64,000 nucleotides of DNA from Vicinamibacterales bacterium (lineage in GTDB: Bacteria; Acidobacteriota; Vicinamibacteria; Vicinamibacterales; JAMQPK01): assembly GCA_963787755.1 (NCBI GenBank), contig CAWBEG010000002.1, positions 351,101 to 415,100 on the forward strand. The letters are read 5' to 3'. Shown here piece by piece: positions 140 to 55,283 of the stretch. The notes beneath the pieces are model-generated. The model did no database searches, was not told where the DNA came from, and was given only the letters and a program-made list of their open reading frames with translations. The number at the start of each line of letters is the position of its first letter. Within the stretch, counting starts at the first letter, position 1. Both the position numbers and the translations under genes were made by a program.

Positions 140-224
140 CGAAAAAGGCAGAACGAAGAACGAATAGAGATTCGCTCGGTGCGGTCTGCCTGCTTTATTC
201 GTTTTTCGTTCTTCGTTTTTCGTT
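139..224. repeat. Imperfect inverted repeat built from AACGAA-type words between convergent genes; probable bidirectional terminator hairpin
   Basis: aacgaaaaaggcagaacgaagaacgaata (139-167) faces its near reverse complement tattcgtttttcgttcttcgtttttcgtt (196-224). Confidence 0.6.
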
Positions 225-1197: not shown

Positions 1198-2958
1198 GTG
1201 ACTCCGGTTCGCCGCCTCCTCCCTTATATCGGCCGCTACCGCCGGGAATACATACTTGGCTTCGCTTCCCTGGTGCTGTGCTCGACGATGTTCGCGGTGT
1301 CGCCGCTGGTGCTGCAGTTCGCCATCGACGATCTGTACGCGGGGGTCACCAGAACGAAGCTGGCGTTCTACGCGCGCGTGCTGCTGCTGATTGCCGGGCT
1401 CGCCGGGTACTTCCGGTACCAGATGCGGCGCATCATCATCAGCGCGTCGCGCGGCTTCGAGTACGACCTCCGCAACGACTTCTTCGCCCACCTCGAGCGC
1501 CTGCCGGTGTCGTTCTTTCAGCAGAACCGGACCGGCGATCTGATGTCGCGCGCGACAAATGACCTCAGCTCCGTCCGCATGATGGTGGGGCCGGCGGTGA
1601 TGTACCTCGCCAATACGCTCATCACCGCGGTGGTCAGCCTGTCGCTGATGTTCTCGCTCGACGTGCGGCTGACGCTCATCGTGCTGCTGCCGCTGCCGAT
1701 CGTATCGATCACCGTGAAGATGTTCGGCACCGCGATCCACAAGACATTCGAAGAAGTGCAGGAAAAGCTCTCCGACATGAGCGCGGTGGTGCAGGAGTCG
1801 CTGACCGGCGTGCGTGTCGTGCGCGCGTATCGTCAGGAGGAGGCCGAGATCGCCCGCTTCCGCGAGGCGAACATCGATTACCTGCGGCACAACAAGCGGC
1901 TGAGCCGGCTGCAGGGGGCATTCTTCCCGACGATGTCGCTGTTTCTCGGCATCAGCGCGCTGCTTGCGTTGTGGCTCGGCAGCCGCGACGTGATGAGCGG
2001 ACGCCTGACCGTCGGCGAGCTCGTCGCGTTCAACGCGTATCTCGCGCAGCTGGCGTGGCCGATGATCGCGTTCGGATGGGTCACGAATCTGCTCGAGCGC
2101 GGCATGGCCTCATGGAAGCGCATGCTCACCGTCATGGAGACGGTGCCTGCGTCGGTGACGAGACGGATGAGACGGGATTGGAAGCAGTCACGGGTATCAC
2201 GCGTGCGAGGGGCGATCGAATTCCGGAACCTGAGCTTCCTCTACGGCAATCGCGAAGTGCTGAGCAACGTCTCGTTCTCGGTAAGGCGGGCGAGACGGTC
2301 GCCATCGTCGGCGCCACGGGATCCGGCAAATCGACGCTGGTCAATTTGCTGCCGCGCCTGCAGAACCCTCCAAGGGGTACCGTGTTCATCGACGGACGTG
2401 ATGTTCGCGACATTCCGCTCAGCGATCTGCGCGGCATCATCGGCTTTGTGCCACAGGAGCCGTTCCTGTTTTCCGATACGCTCGCCGACAACGTCGCGTT
2501 CGGCGTGCCGGGAGTGAAGCAGGACGCCGTCGCGCGCATCGAAGCCGCTGCATCGGTCGCCCAGCTCGACAAGGACGTTCGCGACTTCCCGCACGGCTAC
2601 GAGACGATGGTCGGGGAGCGCGGCATCACGCTGTCGGGCGGGCAGAAGCAGCGCACCGCCATCGCGCGCGCCGTCGTCACCGATCCGCGCATTCTCATTC
2701 TGGATGATGCGCTGTCCGCGGTGGACACGTACACCGAGGAGGAGATCCTGACGCGCCTGCGCGGCGTGATGAAGGAGCGGACGGCCATCATCATTTCGCA
2801 TCGCATTTCGACCGTTCGCGACGCCGATCAGATTGTCGTGCTGGACGCCGGACGCGTGGTCGAGAAGGGCACGCACGACCAGCTGATCCGCCGCGGCGGA
2901 CACTATGCGGAGCTGTACAAGAAGCAGCTGCTGGAGGAGGAGCTCGCGGCCTCGCTGA
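1198..2958 (+). CDS. ABC exporter, fused permease/ATPase half-transporter (MsbA/MdlA-like), frame broken
   Basis: A six-TM type I exporter domain is followed by Walker [10 protein letters not shown], the signature LSGGQKQR and Walker B ILILDDA. The frame changes near 2282 (..VSFSV / [10 protein letters not shown]). The stop is not resolved; TGA at 2956-2958 abuts the next ATG. Confidence 0.85.
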
Positions 2959-8114: not shown

Positions 8115-8345
8115 TAGAGGAGAGTATGCGAAAGGCCCCGCTTTGCCGTGTGGGGAGGTCGAATGGACCTGCGTAAGCAGGTGGAACCGCTCGGGAGCCG
8201 CGCTTTAGGCTTCCTCGCACCGAGGCATGCGCACCACGCGGCGTTGCGATTCTCTTAGGTTAAACGTTGGCCCAAACGAGCCTCCGAAACCATCACGCGC
8301 AAAGCAGGGAACTCAGTTTCCGATAGTGATCTTAGTCCCCTCCGG
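8112..8345 (-). ncRNA. ssrS: Candidate 6S RNA (boundaries approximate)
   Basis: It lies directly downstream of the zapA stop, which is the E. coli zapA-ssrS arrangement. Long-range complementary segments give a rod shape: 8336-8343 with 8116-8123 (with G-U pairs), 8298-8309 with 8137-8149, and 8277-8286 with 8154-8161. A local hairpin at 8167-8182 sits on the 3' side of a central unpaired region. No covariance model was run. Confidence 0.4.
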
Positions 8346-8959: not shown

Positions 8960-11045
8960 CTATCGTTGTATTGCGTCGTGCGCATTTTTCAGCGCAGTTA
9001 AAATCTCTTTCATCGCCGTCTCCACTTCCGCATCTGTCAGCGTCCGCTCGAGGGAACGGAACGTGAGGCGAAGCGAGAGACTGACGCGCCCTTCGGGCAC
9101 GCCCTTGCCTTGATACCGATCGAACTCGCGCACCGAGACGAGCGTGTCCGGAGCAGCCGCACGGATAGTGCCACGAACTGTTTCCGCGGGCAAGGTCTCG
9201 TCGACCACGATCGAGATATCGCGCGCGCTAGAGGGATAGCGGGGAAGCGGCTTTACGGCCAGGGGCGCCTGCGATTGCGACGCGGTGATGGCATCGAGGT
9301 CGAGCTCGGCCACATATACGTCGTCGCTCGCCGACAATCCCGCCGCTGCGACGATGGCCGGCGTCAGCATGCCGACGCTGCCAATCGCACGCCCCTCGAC
9401 AGAGATCGTGGCCGCACGGCCGCGGACGAGGTAGCGGGGCACCAACGCCCCATCGAAGGCCACCTCGGCCTGCAAAGCGCCCGCGATGGCTTCGACGATC
9501 CCCTTCGCGTCGAAGAAGTCCGTGGGACGGTGTCCGGCGCTCCAGTGCACTGTAACGCCGCTGCCGGTGAGCGCTGCGGCAACGCGGCGTGACTCGCCCG
9601 CTCGCGTCATAGTGGCTCCGAGCTCGAAAAGCCGCACATCGGCGCGTTCGCGGTGGCGATTGTGCGCGACTGACGCCAGCAGGCCGGGCAGCAACGACGG
9701 TCGAAGCACTGAGAATTGCGCAGACGAGCGGATTGCCGATTGGCACAATCGCCCGATCGTCAGCAAACTGGGCGGCTACCGCCGCGTCAATGAAGGAGAA
9801 GGTCAACGCTTCCGAGCAGCCGCTGGCGAGGAGTACTCTCCGCACGAGCCGATCGCGTCCTATCGCCGGGTCCGAGGGTGCAGGAGGGGCGCTGAGCGAC
9901 GGAAAGGTCGACGGCAAACGGTCGTAGCCGTAGTGACGTGCGACATCCTCGATCAGATCGGCTTCCCGCAGGACGTCGACGCGAAATGTCGGCGCACCAA
10001 CGTCCCATCCGGCGTTGTTCCGGCGAATCTGAAACCCCAGCCCCTTGAGGATGCGCTCGACGTCGGGATCGCCGATCTCCAGTCCGAGCACGCGCTGAAT
10101 GCGCTCCCGGCGCAGTTCGATTTGTCTCGGGGTCACTGGGACGGGATATTCGTCGATCGCGCCGCCGCGCGCCGTTCCTGCGCCAATGTCCTCGAGAAGC
10201 GAGATGGCCCGCTCGATGCCTTGCACCGCCGCGTTGACGTCGGCACCCCGTTCGAACCGCGCCGATGCCTCCGTCTTGAGCCCCAGCTTCCTGCTCGTGC
10301 GGCGAACGCTCTTCGGATCGAAAAACGCGCTTTCGAGCACGATGGTTTTAGTTCTGTCGCTCACTTCCGACCCGCCGCCGCCCATCACGCCCGCAACCGC
10401 TTGCGCCTTGTCGCGGTCGGCTATCACCAGCATCTCAGGATCGAGCGCGCGATCGATGCCGTCGAGCGTTGTGATGCGCTCGCCGGGTGCCGCCCGGCGA
10501 ATCCGGATTTCCTTTCCCGCGAGCCTCTCGAGGTCGAACGCATGCATCGGCTGTCCGAGCTCGAGCAGGACGTAGTTTGTGACGTCGACGACGTTGTTGA
10601 TGGGACGCACACCGGCGGCCTGCAGTCGTGACGCCAGCCAGCCGGGCGAGGGCCCGATGGTGACATCCGCGACTGCCGCCGCATAGCGGGGGCACAGATC
10701 TGGCGCTTCCAGCTTTACCGCCACATCTTCAGTTGGCTTGGATGTGAGCGGCTTCGGGACCAGTGGCTTCACCGGCAGTGAGTACGCGGTGCCCACCTCG
10801 CGTGCGAAACCGATGACGCTGAGCGCATCGGGCCGGTTGGCCGTCACCTCGAAATCCAGGACAGCGTTGTCGGAATGGCTCCGGGAGCCTTTTTCGCGCG
10901 AGCCCTCGAAAAAGGCTCCCGGAGCTGTTTCGACCCGCTCGATACTCGAGAGCTCGAACCCCCGCGATGTCAGCATTTCGCCGAGTGCTTCCGCCGATAC
11001 GTTCACGTCCACGAAATCGCGGAGCCAGGAGGCGACGATTTTCAT
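8960..11045 (-). CDS. pheT: Phenylalanine--tRNA ligase beta subunit, frame broken; short form lacking the OB-fold tRNA-binding domain
   Basis: MKIVASWLRDFV..., VTANRPDALS, RPINNVVDVTNYV, the B3/4 and B5 domains and the C-terminal FDRYQGKGV anticodon-binding-like domain are present. ORFs 9228..11045 and 8960..9766 join near 9725-9765. Confidence 0.9.
10878..10925. repeat. Perfect 19-bp inverted repeat (10-nt loop), exactly 48 nt, in frame inside pheT
   Basis: gctccgggagcctttttcg (10878-10896), loop cgcgagccct, then cgaaaaaggctcccggagc (10907-10925). It encodes APGAFFEGSREKGSRS. Confidence 0.85.
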
Positions 11046-11076: not shown

Positions 11077-12123
11077 TCAAACGGGAAACTGCTCCAGGAA
11101 ACGGAGGTCGTTCTCATAGAACAGGCGGATGTCGTCGACGCCATATTTCAGAATCGCAATCCGCTCGATGCCCATACCGAACGCGAATCCCGAAATGCGG
11201 TCGGGATCGTACCCGACCGATTCGAACACCGCCGGATGCACCATACCGCTGCCGCCGATCTCGAGCCATCCCGTGCGCTTGCAGATCGGGCAGCCGCTAC
11301 CGTGGCAGAACACGCAGCCGATGAACACCTCCGCACTCGGCTCGGTGTATGGGAAGAAGCTCGGCCGAATCTGCACTTTTGTGTCCGGCTCGAACAGCTC
11401 GTGCGCGAACGCTGTGAGCGTGCCCTTCAGATCGGCCATCGTGATGCCGTCGCCGACGACGAGTCCTTCGACCTGTTGAAACATCGGCGTGTGCGTCAGG
11501 TCGAGGTCGTCGCGGCGGTAGACCTTGCCGGGCACGATGATTCGCACCGGGGGCGGGTGGCTCTCCATGTAGCGGATCTGCATCGGCGAGGTGTGCGTCC
11601 GGAGCAGCGTCGCCGGACGGCCGAGGCCTGCAACCTCGCCCGAGAGATAGAACGTGTCCTGCATGTCGCGCGCAGGATGTTCGGCCGGCATGTTGAGCGC
11701 AGCGAAGTTGTGATAGTCGTCTTCGATTTCCGGTCCTTCGAGCACCTGGTAGCCGAGGCGCGTGAAGATCGCTTCAATCTCTTCGCGAACGATGGTCAGC
11801 GGATGGCGATGCCCAATCTGCGGCGCCCGGCCGGGCAGAGAGATGTCGACGGCGCCCACGGGCGCTTTCGCCGCATCCAGCGCGGCTTTGCGCTCGTTGA
11901 GCAGCTGCTCAATCTCCTGTTTGAGCTCGTTGGCGCCCTTGCCGAGCAACGGCTTGAGGTCGGGTGGCGCCGAAGCCACCGACTTCATCAGCGCGGTGAC
12001 GAGGCCGTTTTTTCTTCCGAGGTATTTGTCGCGGAGCGACTGAAGGTCCGGCGCCGACGAAAGGCGCGCCAAGTCCTCCTGGAACTCGGCGCGCAGTCGG
12101 GTAATGTCGGCGTCGGTCGTCAC
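11077..12123 (-). CDS. pheS: Phenylalanine--tRNA ligase alpha subunit
   Basis: An intact 348-aa ORF with a GTG start. Class II motifs are present (HPARDMQDTFY, FRPSFFPYTEPSAEV, GSGMVHP...GFAFGMGIERI). Confidence 0.95.
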   Translation of the reverse strand: MTTDADITRLRAEFQEDLARLSSAPDLQSLRDKYLGRKNGLVTALMKSVASAPPDLKPLLGKGANELKQEIEQLLNERKAALDAAKAPVGAVDISLPGRAPQIGHRHPLTIVREEIEAIFTRLGYQVLEGPEIEDDYHNFAALNMPAEHPARDMQDTFYLSGEVAGLGRPATLLRTHTSPMQIRYMESHPPPVRIIVPGKVYRRDDLDLTHTPMFQQVEGLVVGDGITMADLKGTLTAFAHELFEPDTKVQIRPSFFPYTEPSAEVFIGCVFCHGSGCPICKRTGWLEIGGSGMVHPAVFESVGYDPDRISGFAFGMGIERIAILKYGVDDIRLFYENDLRFLEQFPV

Positions 12124-12124
12124 A

Positions 12125-12560
12125 TTAGGCGCGGGCTTCGCGGACCTTGACGGTCTTCGCGGGCCGCGCGGCCTTTTCGGCGCGCACCGGCCGCGGCGTG
12201 GCGAGCGGCTTGGCAGCCTTGGCCTGGGCCGCGATCGCGGCGAACGACGCCGGCTCGTTCACGGCGATGTCTGCCAGCACCTTGCGATCGAGCGTGACGC
12301 CCGCAGCCTTGAGGCCCGCCATGAACTGGCCGTAGGTCAGGCCATGCTCGCGAGCGGCGGCGTTGATGCGGACGATCCACAGCGTGCGGAAATCGCGCTT
12401 CTTGCGGCGGCGTCCGACGAACGCATACTTGAGCGCCGTGTCGACCGACTCTTTCGCCGCCCGATACAGCTTGCTCTTGTTCGCGTAATAACCTTTGGCA
12501 CGCGCGAGCAGTTTCTTCCGCTTGGCTCTGCCGTACTGTTCCTCTCTTTACTCTCGGCAT
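12125..12560 (-). CDS. rplT: 50S ribosomal protein L20 with a Lys/Ala/Pro-rich C-terminal extension, frame broken near the 5' end
   Basis: MPRVKRGTV is followed, after a shift near 12530, by ...[28 protein letters not shown]...[22 protein letters not shown]. The tail is [32 protein letters not shown]. Confidence 0.85.
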
Positions 12561-13498: not shown

Positions 13499-15476
13499 TC
13501 AGCTTTCAGCTATCAGCGTTGGCTGAGAGCCCTTCCTGTTCACTTCCTCGTGCGCAGACGCCACGAATGCGTCCAGCGGCTGCGATCCAAGATCGCCTCC
13601 GGAGCGGCTCCGCACGGACACGGCACCCTCAGCAGCTTCGCGATCGCCTACGACCAGCATGTAGGGAATCTTCTGAAGCTGCGCCTCACGGATCTTATAT
13701 CCAATCTTCTCCTGGCGCTCGTCGACCTGCATCCGGAATCCGGCCTCGGCGAGGCGCTGGCTGACGGCGTGGGCGTACGACTGCATGCCTGTCGGCAATC
13801 GGCAGCACGATGGCCTGCACCGGCGCGAGCCACAACGGAAACGCGCCCGCATAGTGCTCGATGAGGATCGCGATGAACCGCTCGAAGCTGCCGAAGATGG
13901 CCCGATGGATCACGATGGGCAGATGCTCGGCGTTGTCTGCGCCGATGTACTTGAGGCCAAAGCGCGCCGGCATCTGATAATCGAGCTGAATCGTCGCGCA
14001 CTGCCACTTTCGCCCGATCGCGTCGGTGACATCGAAGTCGATCTTCGGACCGTAAAACGCGCCGTCGCCTTCGTTGAGCGTGTAGGGCTGTGCCGCTTTC
14101 TCGAGTGCCGCCTTGAGCTGCGATTCCGCAGAGTCCCACGTCGCGGCCTCGCCGAGAAACTCGGGCGGTCGAGTGGCCAGCTTTGCTTCGAACTGCAGCC
14201 CGAAGTCGCCATAGATGCGCTGCACGAGACCCAGCAGCCGAACGACCTCTTCGGCAATCTGGTCCTGCGCGACAAAACAGTGCGCGTCGTCCTGACTGAG
14301 CTGCCGCACCCGCACGAGACCAGAAAGTGTCCCCGATACTTCGTTGCGATGCAGCGGCGTCTGCTCGTGAAAGCGGAGCGGAAGGTCGCGATAGCTTCGC
14401 ACTTCGCTCGCGAACAGCAGCATGTGTCCGGGGCAGTTCATCGCCTTCAGCGCGAGCTGCTCGGCTTCGGGATTCGCCTTGCCCTGGTCGTCGTGATGCT
14501 CGATCAGAAACATGTTCTGACGGTAATGCGACCAGTGCCCCGACGTTTCCCAGAGCGCCTTATTGAACACGAGCGGCGTCTTCACTTCGACATAGCCCGA
14601 CGGAAACAGGATGCCGCGCATGTAGTTCGCCAGCAGGTTGTACAGCGTCGTCCCCTTGTCGAGCCAGAACGTCGCACCCGGCGCCCACTGATGAAACATG
14701 AACAGGCCAAGGTCGCGGCCGAGCTTCCGGTGATCGCGCTTCTTGGCTTCTTCGATCTGCGTGAGGTACGCCTGCAGCTCTTTGTCGCTGAAGAACGCCG
14801 TGCCATAGACGCGCTGCATCGGCTGATTGCGCGCGTCGCCTTTCCAATACGCGTTCGACGTGTTCAGCAGCTTGAACGCCTTCAGCCTGCCGCTCGTCGG
14901 CACGTGCGGGCCTACACAGAAATCGACGAACAGGTCGCGATCCTTGATCGTGTAGACGGACACGTCCTTCTGGCCCTCGGTTTTTTCTTCGATGAGCTGC
15001 ACCTTCAGTGGCTCGCCCCGCTCGCGGAAGAACCGGATGGCCTCGTCGCGCGGCCACATCTGACGCTCATAGATGAAGTCGCCGCTGGCAATCTCCTTCA
15101 TCTTCTTCTCGATGGCTTCGAGGTCTTCGGGCACGAACGGCTGTGGAACGACGAAATCGTAGAAGAACCCCTCATCAGTTGGGGGGCCGATGCCGCACTG
15201 CACCGAGGGGAACAGCTGCGTCACCGCGGCCGCCAGCAGATGCGCCGTGCTGTGACGATAGACGGTCAAGGCTTCAGGATCCTTGTTCGTGAGAATCCGG
15301 ACCTTCGCGTCCTCCTGCAGCGGATACGTCAGATCGACGACGCGGTCGTTGACCATTCCGGCGTATGCTGCCTGCGCGAGGCGAGGCGATATCGACGCGG
15401 CGATATCGCCGACGGTTGTCGCGCTCGGGACGCTGCGTGTCGACCCGTCGGGGAGGGTGATGGTGAGCTGGGACAA
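13499..15476 (-). CDS. thrS: Threonine--tRNA ligase, frame broken
   Basis: TTG start at 15476. The TGS domain (ITLPDGS), the editing domain and the class II core are present, and the anticodon-binding domain is in ORF 13499..13852. The frame changes near 13795-13850. Confidence 0.9.
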
Positions 15477-15532: not shown

Positions 15533-15608
15533 TGGTAGGCGCGGGTGGAATCGAACCACTGACCTCCTGCGTGTCAAGCAGGCGCTCTAACCGCTGAGCT
15601 ACGCGCCT
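15533..15608 (-). tRNA. tRNA-Val (anticodon GAC), CCA encoded
   Basis: Manual cloverleaf: acceptor AGGCGCG/CGCGCCT, D stem GCTC/GAGC, anticodon stem CCTGC/GCAGG with loop TTGACAC, T loop TTCGATT. The T stem has one A-C mismatch at positions 49-65. Confidence 0.85.
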
Positions 15609-19013: not shown

Positions 19014-20057
19014 ATGAAGCGCGCATTCCTGTTTCTGCTGGCGCTAACTGTCATCGCCGCTCTTGGCGTGGCCTGGACGCTCTACAAACGAACGAGCGAA
19101 CCGTTCAAGGGATACGACGGAGCCGAGCAGTTCGTCACGATCGAGCCGGGCAGCGGCACGCGGACGATCGGTCAACGCCTCATTGACGCCGGCGTCATCC
19201 GCAACGACGCGACATTTCGTGCCGCGTTGTGGCGAAGCGGGCGCGCGCGCAGCCTGCAGGCCGGGGAATTTCGCTTCGACCGGCCAATGACGCCCATCGA
19301 CGTCATCGACAAGATCGCGCGCGGCGACGTCTACAACCGGCGCATCACGTTTCCGGAGGGGCTCAACATCCGGGAGATGGCGCGCATCTACGAGCAGCAG
19401 GGGTTCGGCAAGGCGGCGGCCTTCGCGGAGGCGGCGCGCGACACGGGCGCGATTCGCGACATCGACTCCGCCGCGACCGATCTCGAAGGTTATCTCTTTC
19501 CGGAAACGTACTCTGTGCCGCGCGATACAACAGCCGCGACACTTGTCGGCCTCATGGTTGCGCGATTCCGGCAGCTGTTCACCGCACAAATGCAGCAGGC
19601 GGCGCAGGCGCTCGAGCTGACGCCGCGCCAGGCCGTGACGCTCGCGTCGCTCGTCGAGAAAGAAACGGCGCAGCCCGCCGAGCGCCCGATCGTTGCCGCG
19701 GTGTATCTGAACCGGCTGAAGATCGGCATGGGCATGCAAGCCGATCCAACGGTGATCTACGCGCTCCAACGCGCCGGGCGCTACGACGGCAATCTCCGCC
19801 GCGAGGATCTGTCCTTCGATTCGCCGTATAACACCTACCGGTACGCGGGGCTGCCTCCCGGGCCGATCGCCTCGCCGGGGCTCGCCTCGCTGCAGGCCGC
19901 GGTTGCACCGGCAGCAGTCGATTATCTGTACTTCGTCAGCCGCAACGACGGGTCGCATGTCTTCGCACGCACGCTCCCCGAGCACAACGAGAACGTCCGG
20001 CAATATCAGGTGCTGTATTTCCGGGAGCAGCGCGCCAAAGAGAAAGCCGGTAGGTAG
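19014..20057 (+). CDS. mltG: Endolytic murein transglycosylase MltG (YceG family)
   Basis: MKRAFLFLLALTVIAALGV TM anchor. YceG motifs are present (ITFPEGLNIREMA, EGYLFPETY, ASLVEKE, DPTVIYAL, YNTYRYAGLPPGPIASPG). Confidence 0.85.
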   Translation: MKRAFLFLLALTVIAALGVAWTLYKRTSEPFKGYDGAEQFVTIEPGSGTRTIGQRLIDAGVIRNDATFRAALWRSGRARSLQAGEFRFDRPMTPIDVIDKIARGDVYNRRITFPEGLNIREMARIYEQQGFGKAAAFAEAARDTGAIRDIDSAATDLEGYLFPETYSVPRDTTAATLVGLMVARFRQLFTAQMQQAAQALELTPRQAVTLASLVEKETAQPAERPIVAAVYLNRLKIGMGMQADPTVIYALQRAGRYDGNLRREDLSFDSPYNTYRYAGLPPGPIASPGLASLQAAVAPAAVDYLYFVSRNDGSHVFARTLPEHNENVRQYQVLYFREQRAKEKAGR

Positions 20058-23113: not shown

Positions 23114-24276
23114 ATCCACGGCAGGAATTTGAAGATCGTCTTGCAGCCGCGCTCGCCGAGCTGCGAGGCGCGGGCCTGCTGCGACAAATGCGGCTCCCGA
23201 TCGGGATCGATCTTGTCTCGAACGACTACCTCGGGCTTGCCGAACATCCGCATTTAAGAGAGAGAATGCGCGCCAGCGTCGCCGACCTTCCCGCCGGGTC
23301 CGGCGGTTCGCGCCTTCTGCGTGGTCATCATGAAATATTCGAGATCATCGAAGAGCGGCTCGCAGCGTTCACGGGTTCCGAGTCCGCGTTGCTCTTTGGA
23401 TCCGGATACGCAGCCAATATCGGGCTGCTGCAGGCCGTCGTGTCGACAGACGATCTGATCGTGTCCGATGCGCGCAACCATGCGAGTCTCATCGACGGCA
23501 TCCGTCTGACGAAGGCGGCGACCGCGATTTATCCGCACCAGGACTTGAACGCGCTCGAGGCGGTGCTTTCACAACCCCGCAGAGGGCGCGCGCTGGTCAT
23601 CACCGAAAGCGTGTTCAGCATGGATGGCGATCTGACGCCACTGCGCGAGATCTGCGATATCGCCGAGCGCGCGCGTGCCGTCGTCATCGTCGACGAGGCG
23701 CACGCGACGGGGATGTACGGGTCGCGCGGATCGGGACGCGTCGAAGAGCTTGGCCTGCGCGATCGTGTCGTCGCCACGATGCACACAGGAGGGAAGGCGC
23801 TGGGCTCCGGCGGCGCGTGGGTGGCCGGATCGCGCGCGCTGCGCGATGTGATGGTGAATCGTGCGCGCTCGTTCATTTTTTCGACGGCGCCGCTGCCCGT
23901 CCTGGGTGCGGCGCTTGGCGCGGGGCTGCATCTCGTCGAGCGCGAGCCGGAGCGGCGGCGCGAGGCGCACCGGAAGGCGTGCGTATTGAGAGGTGCGCTT
24001 CGTGAAAATGGCGTGCAGGCCGACGGCGAGTCGATGATCGTGCCGATCATCGCGGGCGCGAACGAGGCGGCGACAGCTTTGCAGTCTGGTTTGTCGGCCG
24101 CCGGCTTCGATGTGCGCGCCATCCGACCGCCGTCGGTGCCTGCGGGCACCGCGCGGTTGCGTGTGACCGTCCGCTATCCTGTGGCCGATGCCGATCTGGT
24201 GCGATTCGCGTCCGAGGTCGCGCGACTTACGTATCACGTAAAAATGGGGTCTGACCCTCTTGCCACCAACCCCTGA
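23110..24276 (+). CDS. bioF: 8-amino-7-oxononanoate synthase
   Basis: ATG at 23110 overlaps the bioB stop (ATGA). [23 protein letters not shown] and a [11 protein letters not shown] region containing the PLP lysine are present. Confidence 0.9.
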
Positions 24277-55207: not shown

Positions 55208-55283
55208 TGGAGCCGGCGACCGGACTTGAACGGGTGACCTGCTGATTACGAATCAGCTGCTCTACCAACTGAGCTACGCCGGC
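55208..55283 (-). tRNA. tRNA-Thr (anticodon CGU), CCA encoded
   Basis: Manual cloverleaf: acceptor GCCGGCG/CGCCGGC, D stem GCTC/GAGC, anticodon stem GCTGA/TCAGC with loop TTCGTAA, T loop TTCAAGT. The T stem has one C-C mismatch. Confidence 0.85.

Follow-up and report, generated by a model that had tools for sequence, protein, structure and literature searches.

Introduction

The SPRITE of Streptococcus pneumoniae is a mobile hairpin that resembles a terminator, lies between genes and acts as a terminator. Additionally, Rickettsia palindromic elements (RPEs) inserted in frame have been described previously, and SPRITE is among the elements listed in the same source (PMC10969869). Dimers of repetitive extragenic palindromic (REP) sequences may also stand inside genes, where, according to the available text of PMC3733652, they code for 20-30 residues, tRNA synthetase genes being included. 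In REPINs (REP doublets forming hairpins), the REPs are conserved and the spacers are variable (PMC3337134), and the decay of REPINs follows the loss of the RAYT (REP-associated tyrosine transposase) (10.1101/2021.07.10.451892). This report addresses an element of comparable shape, a perfect 48-nt palindrome inserted in frame in pheT, the gene of the phenylalanine--tRNA ligase (PheRS) beta subunit. It lies in a stretch of 64,000 nucleotides from a Vicinamibacterales bacterium of the Acidobacteriota (contig CAWBEG010000002.1, positions 351,101 to 415,100), and this whole stretch is called the window. We consider it probable that the palindrome, which measures 48 nt, or about 57-66 nt if the decayed outer arms are counted, represents one copy of a short non-coding repeat of the REP, REPIN or Rickettsia palindrome kind.

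Anatomy of the pheT Palindrome

The initial annotation of the window described a 48-nt perfect inverted repeat with a 19-bp stem and a 10-nt loop, occupying 16 codons of pheT in frame, and this description is correct in every particular. The arms, 10878-10896 (GCTCCGGGAGCCTTTTTCG) and 10907-10925 (CGAAAAAGGCTCCCGGAGC), are complementary at 19 of 19 positions and enclose the loop at 10897-10906. Read on the minus strand, the palindrome makes up codons 41-56 of pheT (APGAFFEGSREKGSRS), between the segments SSIERVET and HSDNAVLDFEVTANRPDAL; the flanking PheT domains are intact. It is the longest hairpin of the window and exceeds chance expectation. When up to three mismatches are allowed, the 19-mer is found in the window only as the two arms, with 0.03 occurrences expected from window shuffles. 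The RNA fold of the palindrome reaches -51.3 kcal/mol (z = -6.9), and none of 200 shuffles folds equally well.

The inverted repeat continues imperfectly beyond the perfect arms, and the wider span of 10869-10934 is about the size of the 57-60 nt that are absent from L199, the closest relative. In each arm, the outermost 9 nt (GTCGGAATG / TGTTTCGAC) resemble a decayed form of the outer arms that are intact in another relative, L081 (ATYGAAAAGGCTCC). Two small palindromes are nested within the element, with a counterpart in L081 that has a 10-bp stem (AAAAGGCTCC G GGAGCCTTTT). The element therefore reads as two inverted units around a 10-nt spacer, each with its own small palindrome. Its arms could also count as terminal inverted repeats in the sense used for MITEs, the miniature transposable elements with inverted repeats. 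As read from the sequence, all three frames of the element are open in either orientation. Compared with the empty site, the added DNA amounts to a multiple of three, and an essential gene can for these reasons accommodate it.

At the protein level, PheT was modelled with AlphaFold2 using 59 aligned sequences, with a mean predicted local distance difference test (pLDDT) of 92.4 and a predicted template modelling score (pTM) of 0.90. Residues 41-60, which join the strands at residues 31-37 and 61-66, have a pLDDT of about 57-60 and no secondary structure. The insert is rich in Gly, Ser, Lys and Glu and forms a surface loop of 16-19 residues in the model. In the model it is thus a disordered protrusion from the B1 beta-hairpin tip, exposed on the surface and compatible with the fold. 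The element would be both transcribed and translated, and the insert is presumably neutral in function, with no role in that of PheRS.

One Codon Position Occupied by Different Palindromes

Orthologous sites were compared within a subclade in which PheT is 70-90% identical to that of the window and carries the motif GFELS…; related loci and PheT proteins are referred to by handles such as L081 and P0130. A scan of genome contigs with conserved PheT peptide patterns gave at least 600 matches, and those listed were Clostridia, with no close relative among them. Nearly every lineage of this subclade has a palindrome at the same codon position, with sequences that differ and fall into at least five types. 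Type A, with GGCTCCSGGAGCC and TTTTTCG, occurs only in the window (19 bp, perfect) and in L081 (23 bp, one mismatch), at the same pheT site. Type B, with GGGGTCWGACCCC, is present in L083, L085 and L200 (19-bp perfect stem, or 21 bp with one mismatch), in decayed form in L082, and as one and the same single unit with A6/T6 flanks in L087, L088 and L165. Type C (L089, L092, L166, L086) is made of inverted arrays of a CCATCGT heptamer, type D (L084) of GGGATCC and TTTTTCG, and type E (L167, outgroup; 23 bp, perfect) of GGGGACGGGAGTC and TTTTTC. More variants are seen at the peptide level (P0003, P0122, P0130, P0131, P0136, P0138).

The five types follow sub-clades in a rough neighbour-joining tree of the 480 nt downstream. 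The loop-proximal motif CGGGA[G/T][C/T]CTTTTTC(G) is common to types A, D and E, which therefore belong to one superfamily, and 13-14 of the 15 loop-proximal bases of type A are shared with types D and E. Deeper orthologues have a linker of 4-5 residues at the site. The site is embedded in older complementary flanks, namely ATCGAG…CTCGAC (IE…LD) and GFEV/DFEV, and it is an insertion hot spot. The initial annotation had named an ancestral linker as a possible alternative, and this is contradicted by the orthologues, which have different palindromes, a short linker or nothing at the site.

Such a series could also arise if the palindrome were a cis-acting hairpin, 120 nt into pheT, tuning translation, mRNA stability or the PheS:PheT stoichiometry. 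This account predicts a conserved structure with a sequence that drifts by compensatory change. In fact, a strong hairpin stands at the same codon position in most subclade members despite complete turnover of its sequence, the arms in L083, L085 and L200 are far better conserved than the flanking synonymous sites, and other Vicinamibacteria have large hairpins just upstream of pheT (L008, L117, L101, L199, L084). However, L199, L091, L086, L202, L201 and all deeper orthologues have no hairpin or a negligible one, the stems pair as perfect Watson-Crick DNA palindromes instead of RNA-style stems with G-U pairs, and the same arms recur in an ABC-transporter gene, which is unrelated, and in a spacer between genes. 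The element matches no Rfam family, giving only generic hairpin matches far below threshold. Where the linker is short, the local fold has a mean z of -0.66 against synonymous-codon resampling, which is close to what the protein sequence leads one to expect; the basal fold of these orthologues therefore comes mostly from the protein sequence and is not evidence of a selected RNA structure. There is also no terminator signature on the sense strand, where the long stem is followed by CAUUCCGAC, with no U-tract, and the only terminator signal comes from a 5-bp mini-stem with T5 on the antisense strand. We regard a cis-acting hairpin as quite unlikely. An intrinsic terminator was considered separately and rejected, as the sense strand has no terminator-like site.

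Dispersed Copies at Other Loci

The pheT-site sequences recur elsewhere in the subclade. In L084, the pheT element is found again 9 kb away (19145-19214, 31-bp perfect stem), where it stands in frame in the linker between the transmembrane domain and the nucleotide-binding domain of an MsbA-like ABC transporter (…EPLEMKSGSFFAEGGEKGSRFHFQGAIEFRN…). The orthologous linker in the window (2118-2229), L082 and L166 is hypervariable, with other, non-palindromic sequence. In L167, the 23-bp arms are found again at 19716-19774, overlapping the stop codon of a helix-turn-helix gene. In both genomes, the arms match between the near-identical copies, which lie within 10 kb of each other, and the loops are unrelated. 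Only two copies outside pheT were thus seen in about 235-300 kb of subclade loci.

Units of type B are also found between genes. One stands directly after the rny stop codon in L084 (14716-14734) as the single unit GGAGGGGTCAGACCCCTCC, and directly after the rny stop in L201 (14454-14543) there is a REPIN-like inverted doublet, in which GGGGTCAGACCCTATTTTTTCGTTTTTCGTA (27 nt) is followed by its reverse complement. In the window, a gene junction carries AAAAATGGGGTCTGACCC, a relic of the type B unit GGGGTCWGACCCC, which shows that such units are dispersed in the genome of the window too. Additionally, P0130 and P0131, two PheT fragments available as protein only, have a second in-frame insert of the GSDP type (LGSDPGTVRGSDPLA), coded by a palindromic unit of type B, between AYSLPLR and DVTVKLEAPDLCPRY, and thus bear two inserts.

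These recurrences bear on a further rival, in which the palindrome grew locally and independently in each lineage, by template switching or hairpin-primed repair at the apex of a quasi-palindrome. The palindromes are indeed nested in the older complementary flanks, templated correction of a quasi-palindrome yields perfect arms, the type C arrays of an inverted 7-nt tandem repeat resemble slippage with strand switching, and no further copy of the window element turned up. However, a sequence that recurs at different loci would not come from local growth. In types D and E, near-identical arms are seen at loci that are unrelated; three species share the same type B arms, which are found again between genes and at a second site in pheT; and type A has 13-14 of its 15 loop-proximal bases in common with types D and E. 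Given that type A was seen in no second copy, purely local growth is conceivable for this type alone, and it cannot explain types B, D and E; as an account of the palindrome we judge it unlikely.

Gain, Loss and Upkeep Among Near Relatives

The closest relative, L199, has 93.6% nucleotide identity to the window over 20 kb and 96% in pheT, and is without 57 nt at the site (…ATCGAGCGCGTTCGACGACGACGCTGTCCTGGAT…, that is, IERV-DDDAVLDFEV). A loss in L199 is the more parsimonious course because L081 also has type A, and a recent gain in the lineage of the window is conceivable as well. Further hairpins are among the remaining larger indels that separate the window from L199, at L199 4767-4814 and, in the pheS-pheT spacer, at L199 9781-9810. 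This spacer is only 31 nt long in the window, and both L199 and L084 have an additional hairpin there.

Type B shows maintenance at the DNA level, its arms being conserved beyond their flanks, and decay is seen in one lineage. Among L083, L085 and L200, all 42 of 42 arm bases are identical and the only difference is at the unpaired centre base (C, A, T), with the flanking pheT DNA being 79-85% identical; the decayed copy of type B is found in L082, which is 92% identical to L085. Conserved arms with free spacers, the same 'master' sequence across species and decay in a single lineage are together as described for REPINs and RAYTs (PMC3337134; 10.1101/2021.07.10.451892).

On the reading that the palindrome is a copy of a dispersed non-coding repeat, it would be non-autonomous, being copied or homogenised by a trans-acting function, as REPINs are by RAYT transposases. 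The pheT copy would persist through its open frames, its length as a multiple of three and its position in a permissive loop. Copies would decay or be deleted once upkeep stops, perhaps via hairpin-stimulated slippage. The favoured codon position might result from insertion at hairpin apices, given that the site lies in older complementary flanks, or from one old insertion that has been overwritten repeatedly by the current repeat of each genome. A bolder version, which we hold to be doubtful, would make the B1 tip a structure-targeted landing pad, where new REP-like palindromes insert at the apex of a hairpin already present or overwrite it. At least five families would then have re-occupied it, each held to the 'master' sequence of its genome by a trans-acting system of Vicinamibacterales that is as yet undescribed and has no GTAG/CGTC hallmarks, and the hairpin might also have been co-opted to tune the expression of pheT.

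Several points weigh against the dispersed-repeat account. That a single codon position is so often hit or retained does not follow from random insertion of selfish DNA alone. The arm ends of the window element, read directly, carry none of GTAG, CTAC, CGTC or GACG. Relative to the empty site of L199 there is no clear target-site duplication, as (GAC)n variation and errors of sequencing obscure the junction. Nor is this empty state beyond doubt, since several close relatives come from error-prone long-read assemblies: L199 has the local frameshifts typical of these assemblies, and the calls of open reading frames (ORFs) break or restart around the palindrome site in P0008/L199, P0132 and P0135 (93-97% identity to the PheT of the window). 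A second copy of the 19-mer arm is missing from the 64-kb window at up to three mismatches, and none was found in related loci totalling about 1 Mb, in IMG/VR or, by blastn, in PLSDB. In IMG/VR, the 19-mer arm gave one single-arm chance match, and the pattern CCTTTTTCG-N(4-18)-CGAAAAAGG gave 30 unrelated hairpins, which is not informative. A peptide-profile search for the element in other proteins gave 0 matches and had no power, as it missed even P0006, which has an exact match of 24 residues. Finally, a tblastn search of 1.04 Mb, a small part of any genome, with an approximate E. coli YafM query gave no RAYT-like gene (best E = 0.7), which is a weak test.

The Missing B2 Domain

It had also been noted in the initial annotation that the tRNA-binding domain B2 is missing from PheT and that the palindrome stands in its place, and both the Pfam annotation and the alignment with Thermus PheT agree with this. 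Pfam recognizes B1, B3_4, B5, CLM and FDX-ACB in the PheT of the window, and no tRNA_bind (PF01588, B2). Residues 1-43 align with residues 1-43 of Thermus thermophilus PheT and residues 57-289 with Thermus 150-385; the palindrome therefore occupies the exact B2 insertion position of canonical PheT. The same B1 hairpin tip bears a B2 domain of about 105 residues in Thermus.

The nearest PheT homologues belong to Vicinamibacterales and Acidobacteriota, and PF01588 is found in 0 of the best 120. Full-length PheT was checked from six Acidobacteriota lineages, which are two metagenome-assembled genomes of the Vicinamibacterales type, gp6, gp11, Acidoferrum and Pyrinomonadaceae (L001, L002, L005, L007, L008, L048). 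These proteins have 679-724 aa and B2 in none of them; in the control proteins, which come from Desulfobacteraceae and Clostridium, the domain occupies residues 45-147. The absence of B2 in all checked lineages, across several classes, argues that the B2-less architecture is old and common to every Acidobacteriota lineage checked. A limited literature search found no description of this architecture in Acidobacteriota PheT.

The position of the palindrome, exactly where Thermus and other bacteria have B2 inserted, had invited the proposal that it marks a domain-deletion junction, as a scar or by-product of an event in which about 100 codons were excised, with the palindrome as its mediator or its mark. 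However, B2 is absent from every Acidobacteriota PheT examined, and most of the B2-less orthologues have a plain linker of 4-5 residues (…SIEPLDGGDAVIDFE…) with no palindrome. The palindrome, by contrast, is lineage-specific: it changes from one close relative to another, and the nearest relative has none. A deletion scar is extremely improbable, and we rejected it as contradicted by the B2-less PheT of all six lineages. What stands of the proposal is a palindromic element in frame, resembling RPEs and intragenic REPs; the tie to B2 loss does not. The element and the loss of B2 are unrelated, and their shared position would best be explained if both are insertions into one permissive B1 hairpin tip. 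The initial annotation would have given up its reading if the B2-less architecture were old and clade-wide and other copies did not exist. The first half was borne out in every lineage checked; as to the second, the sister types D and E recur elsewhere, and a second copy of the window type was not found in the sequences searched.

Assembly Quality and Surrounding Features

Three essential genes of the window are split by frameshifts: pheT at 9722-9730, rplT at about 12530 (ORF 12120-12560) and thrS at about 13850 (ORFs 13695-15476 and 13499-13852). A like fragmentation of essential genes is seen in relatives from the ENA samples ERZ2503xxxx. The split genes probably reflect uncorrected long-read assembly rather than pseudogenes. 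On these grounds, one could take the palindrome itself for an artefact of error-prone long-read sequencing or assembly. However, it is perfect and keeps the reading frame, type A stands at the same site in a contig from JGI (L081), and other types are identical in three independent assemblies (L087, L088, L165) and present in L200. Same-site palindromes are thus carried by independent JGI and NCBI assemblies (L081, L087, L088, L165, L200), and an artefact, which we hold to be very improbable, was rejected. The features of the window are collected in Table 1.

Table 1. Positions of the pheT palindrome, its parts and other features in the window.
Feature	Position	Strand	Remark
Perfect 48-nt palindrome	10878..10925	no strand	19-bp arms and 10-nt loop; codes PheT residues 41-56 on the minus strand
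Extended imperfect inverted repeat	10869..10934	no strand	28-nt arms, 89% complementary
First sub-palindrome, GGCTCC-G-GGAGCC, then TTTTTCG	10877..10889	no strand	inside first arm
Second sub-palindrome, GGCTCC-C-GGAGC(T)	10914..10926	no strand	CGAAAAA before it
pheT (phenylalanine--tRNA ligase beta subunit)	8960..11045	-	about 695 aa, without B2; frameshift near 9722-9730 gives ORFs 9228-11045 and 8960-9766
pheS	11077..12123	-	same operon, directly upstream of pheT
B1 beta-strand, residues 31-37 FELSSIE	10935..10955	-	structure model; leads into the insert
B1 beta-strand, residues 61-66 AVLDFE	10848..10865	-	structure model; after the insert
AAAAATGGGGTCTGACCC at gene junction	24240..24262	+	matches left half of the L087/L088/L165 pheT-site palindrome
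6S RNA	8131..8313	-	Rfam gathering-threshold match (87 bits); downstream of zapA
tRNA gene	15536..15608	-	Rfam gathering threshold
tRNA gene	55211..55283	-	Rfam gathering threshold

Other hairpins were observed in the same loci. Inverted repeats with CGAAAAACGAA / TTCGTTTTTCG at window 145-224 and L082 21096-21132 recall the TTTTTCG at the top of the pheT stem. Among distant Vicinamibacteria, hairpins with 21-32 bp stems lie up to about 250 nt upstream of pheT in L008 (9785-9862), L117 (669-746) and L101 (1001-1058). The hairpins that are absent from the window are the two of L199 given above and L084 9933-9960; one of these lies in the spacer between the S41 peptidase and HU genes, flanked by 8-nt direct repeats, and the other (GCGCGGGGGgtggggCCCCCGCGC) lies in the pheS-pheT spacer. 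Species-specific intergenic hairpins with stems of up to 37 bp are built of short tandem repeats, similar to GAATCT, GCTGGTAGC and CAGCTGTCAG, in inverted arrays. These hairpins sit in the zapB-zapA and infC/rpmI/rplT spacers (L084 12365-12445 and 438-474; L082 12398-12429; L201 8232-8307; L202 7894-7939 and 8169-8211).

Significance

In-frame 'selfish' palindromes are best known from Rickettsia and a few proteobacteria, and the present locus extends them to the abundant, free-living soil Acidobacteriota. It represents a natural experiment, in which related species show one orthologous codon position either empty or with a perfect, a decayed or a replaced palindrome, and this series suits the study of how REP-like repeats are targeted, maintained and lost. 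The B1 hairpin tip of the PheRS beta subunit accepts inserts of anything between 0 and more than 100 residues, which is useful for protein engineering and for thinking about the acquisition of B2. For annotation, it is a caution that such inserts are neither errors nor scars of domain loss.

Comparison with Known Palindromic Repeats

As far as the available text of PMC10969869 and PMC3733652 goes, the pheT element is like RPE-1 to RPE-10 (Ogata et al. 2000, 2002) in being a palindromic repeat in frame in a housekeeping gene whose ORF stays intact, in placing its peptide in a surface loop, and in belonging to families that are lineage-specific and, in the sister types D and E, dispersed. Unlike the RPEs, which have about 100-150 bp, Rickettsia sequence families and a conserved peptide, it measures 48-66 nt and has an unrelated sequence. 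Additionally, its host is a free-living GC-rich Acidobacterium, and a single site is used by many families. The element is RPE-like in its working and not a member of an RPE family, as size, sequence and host all differ.

The likeness to REP doublets and REPINs (Bertels & Rainey 2011, PMC3116915 and PMC3337134) lies in two inverted short palindromic units that form one long hairpin around a spacer. In types B, D and E, the arms are highly conserved within and between species and the spacers differ among copies, and decay is seen in some lineages. Each unit also has the form of a REP, an imperfect palindrome of 20-40 nt, as GGCTCC-S-GGAGCC with A/T-tract flanks. REPINs are by definition extragenic in their overwhelming majority, reach tens to hundreds of copies in a genome and stand beside a cognate RAYT. 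The copies studied here, unlike them, are largely intragenic, the spacer has only 1-14 nt and the approximate query found no RAYT in the 1.04 Mb. With SPRITE, the element has in common a GC-rich hairpin with flanking A and T tracts, clearest in the L087 type (CAAAAAATGGGGTCAGACCCCTTTTTTG). Unlike SPRITE, it lies inside an ORF, and on the sense strand its long stem is not followed by a U-tract.

The REPs with GTAG and CGTC tags that lie inside genes (Di Nocera et al. 2013, PMC3733652) come close as well, since in the available text of that study they code, as singletons and dimers, for 20-30 residues and sometimes occur twice per ORF, and they differ in their tags, neither of which is found at the stem end of the pheT element. 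The same available text makes no mention of different families repeatedly occupying one orthologous codon position. The new aspects of the pheT element are its phylum, its form as an untagged doublet with a short spacer and, above all, the repeated filling of one orthologous codon position by different families.

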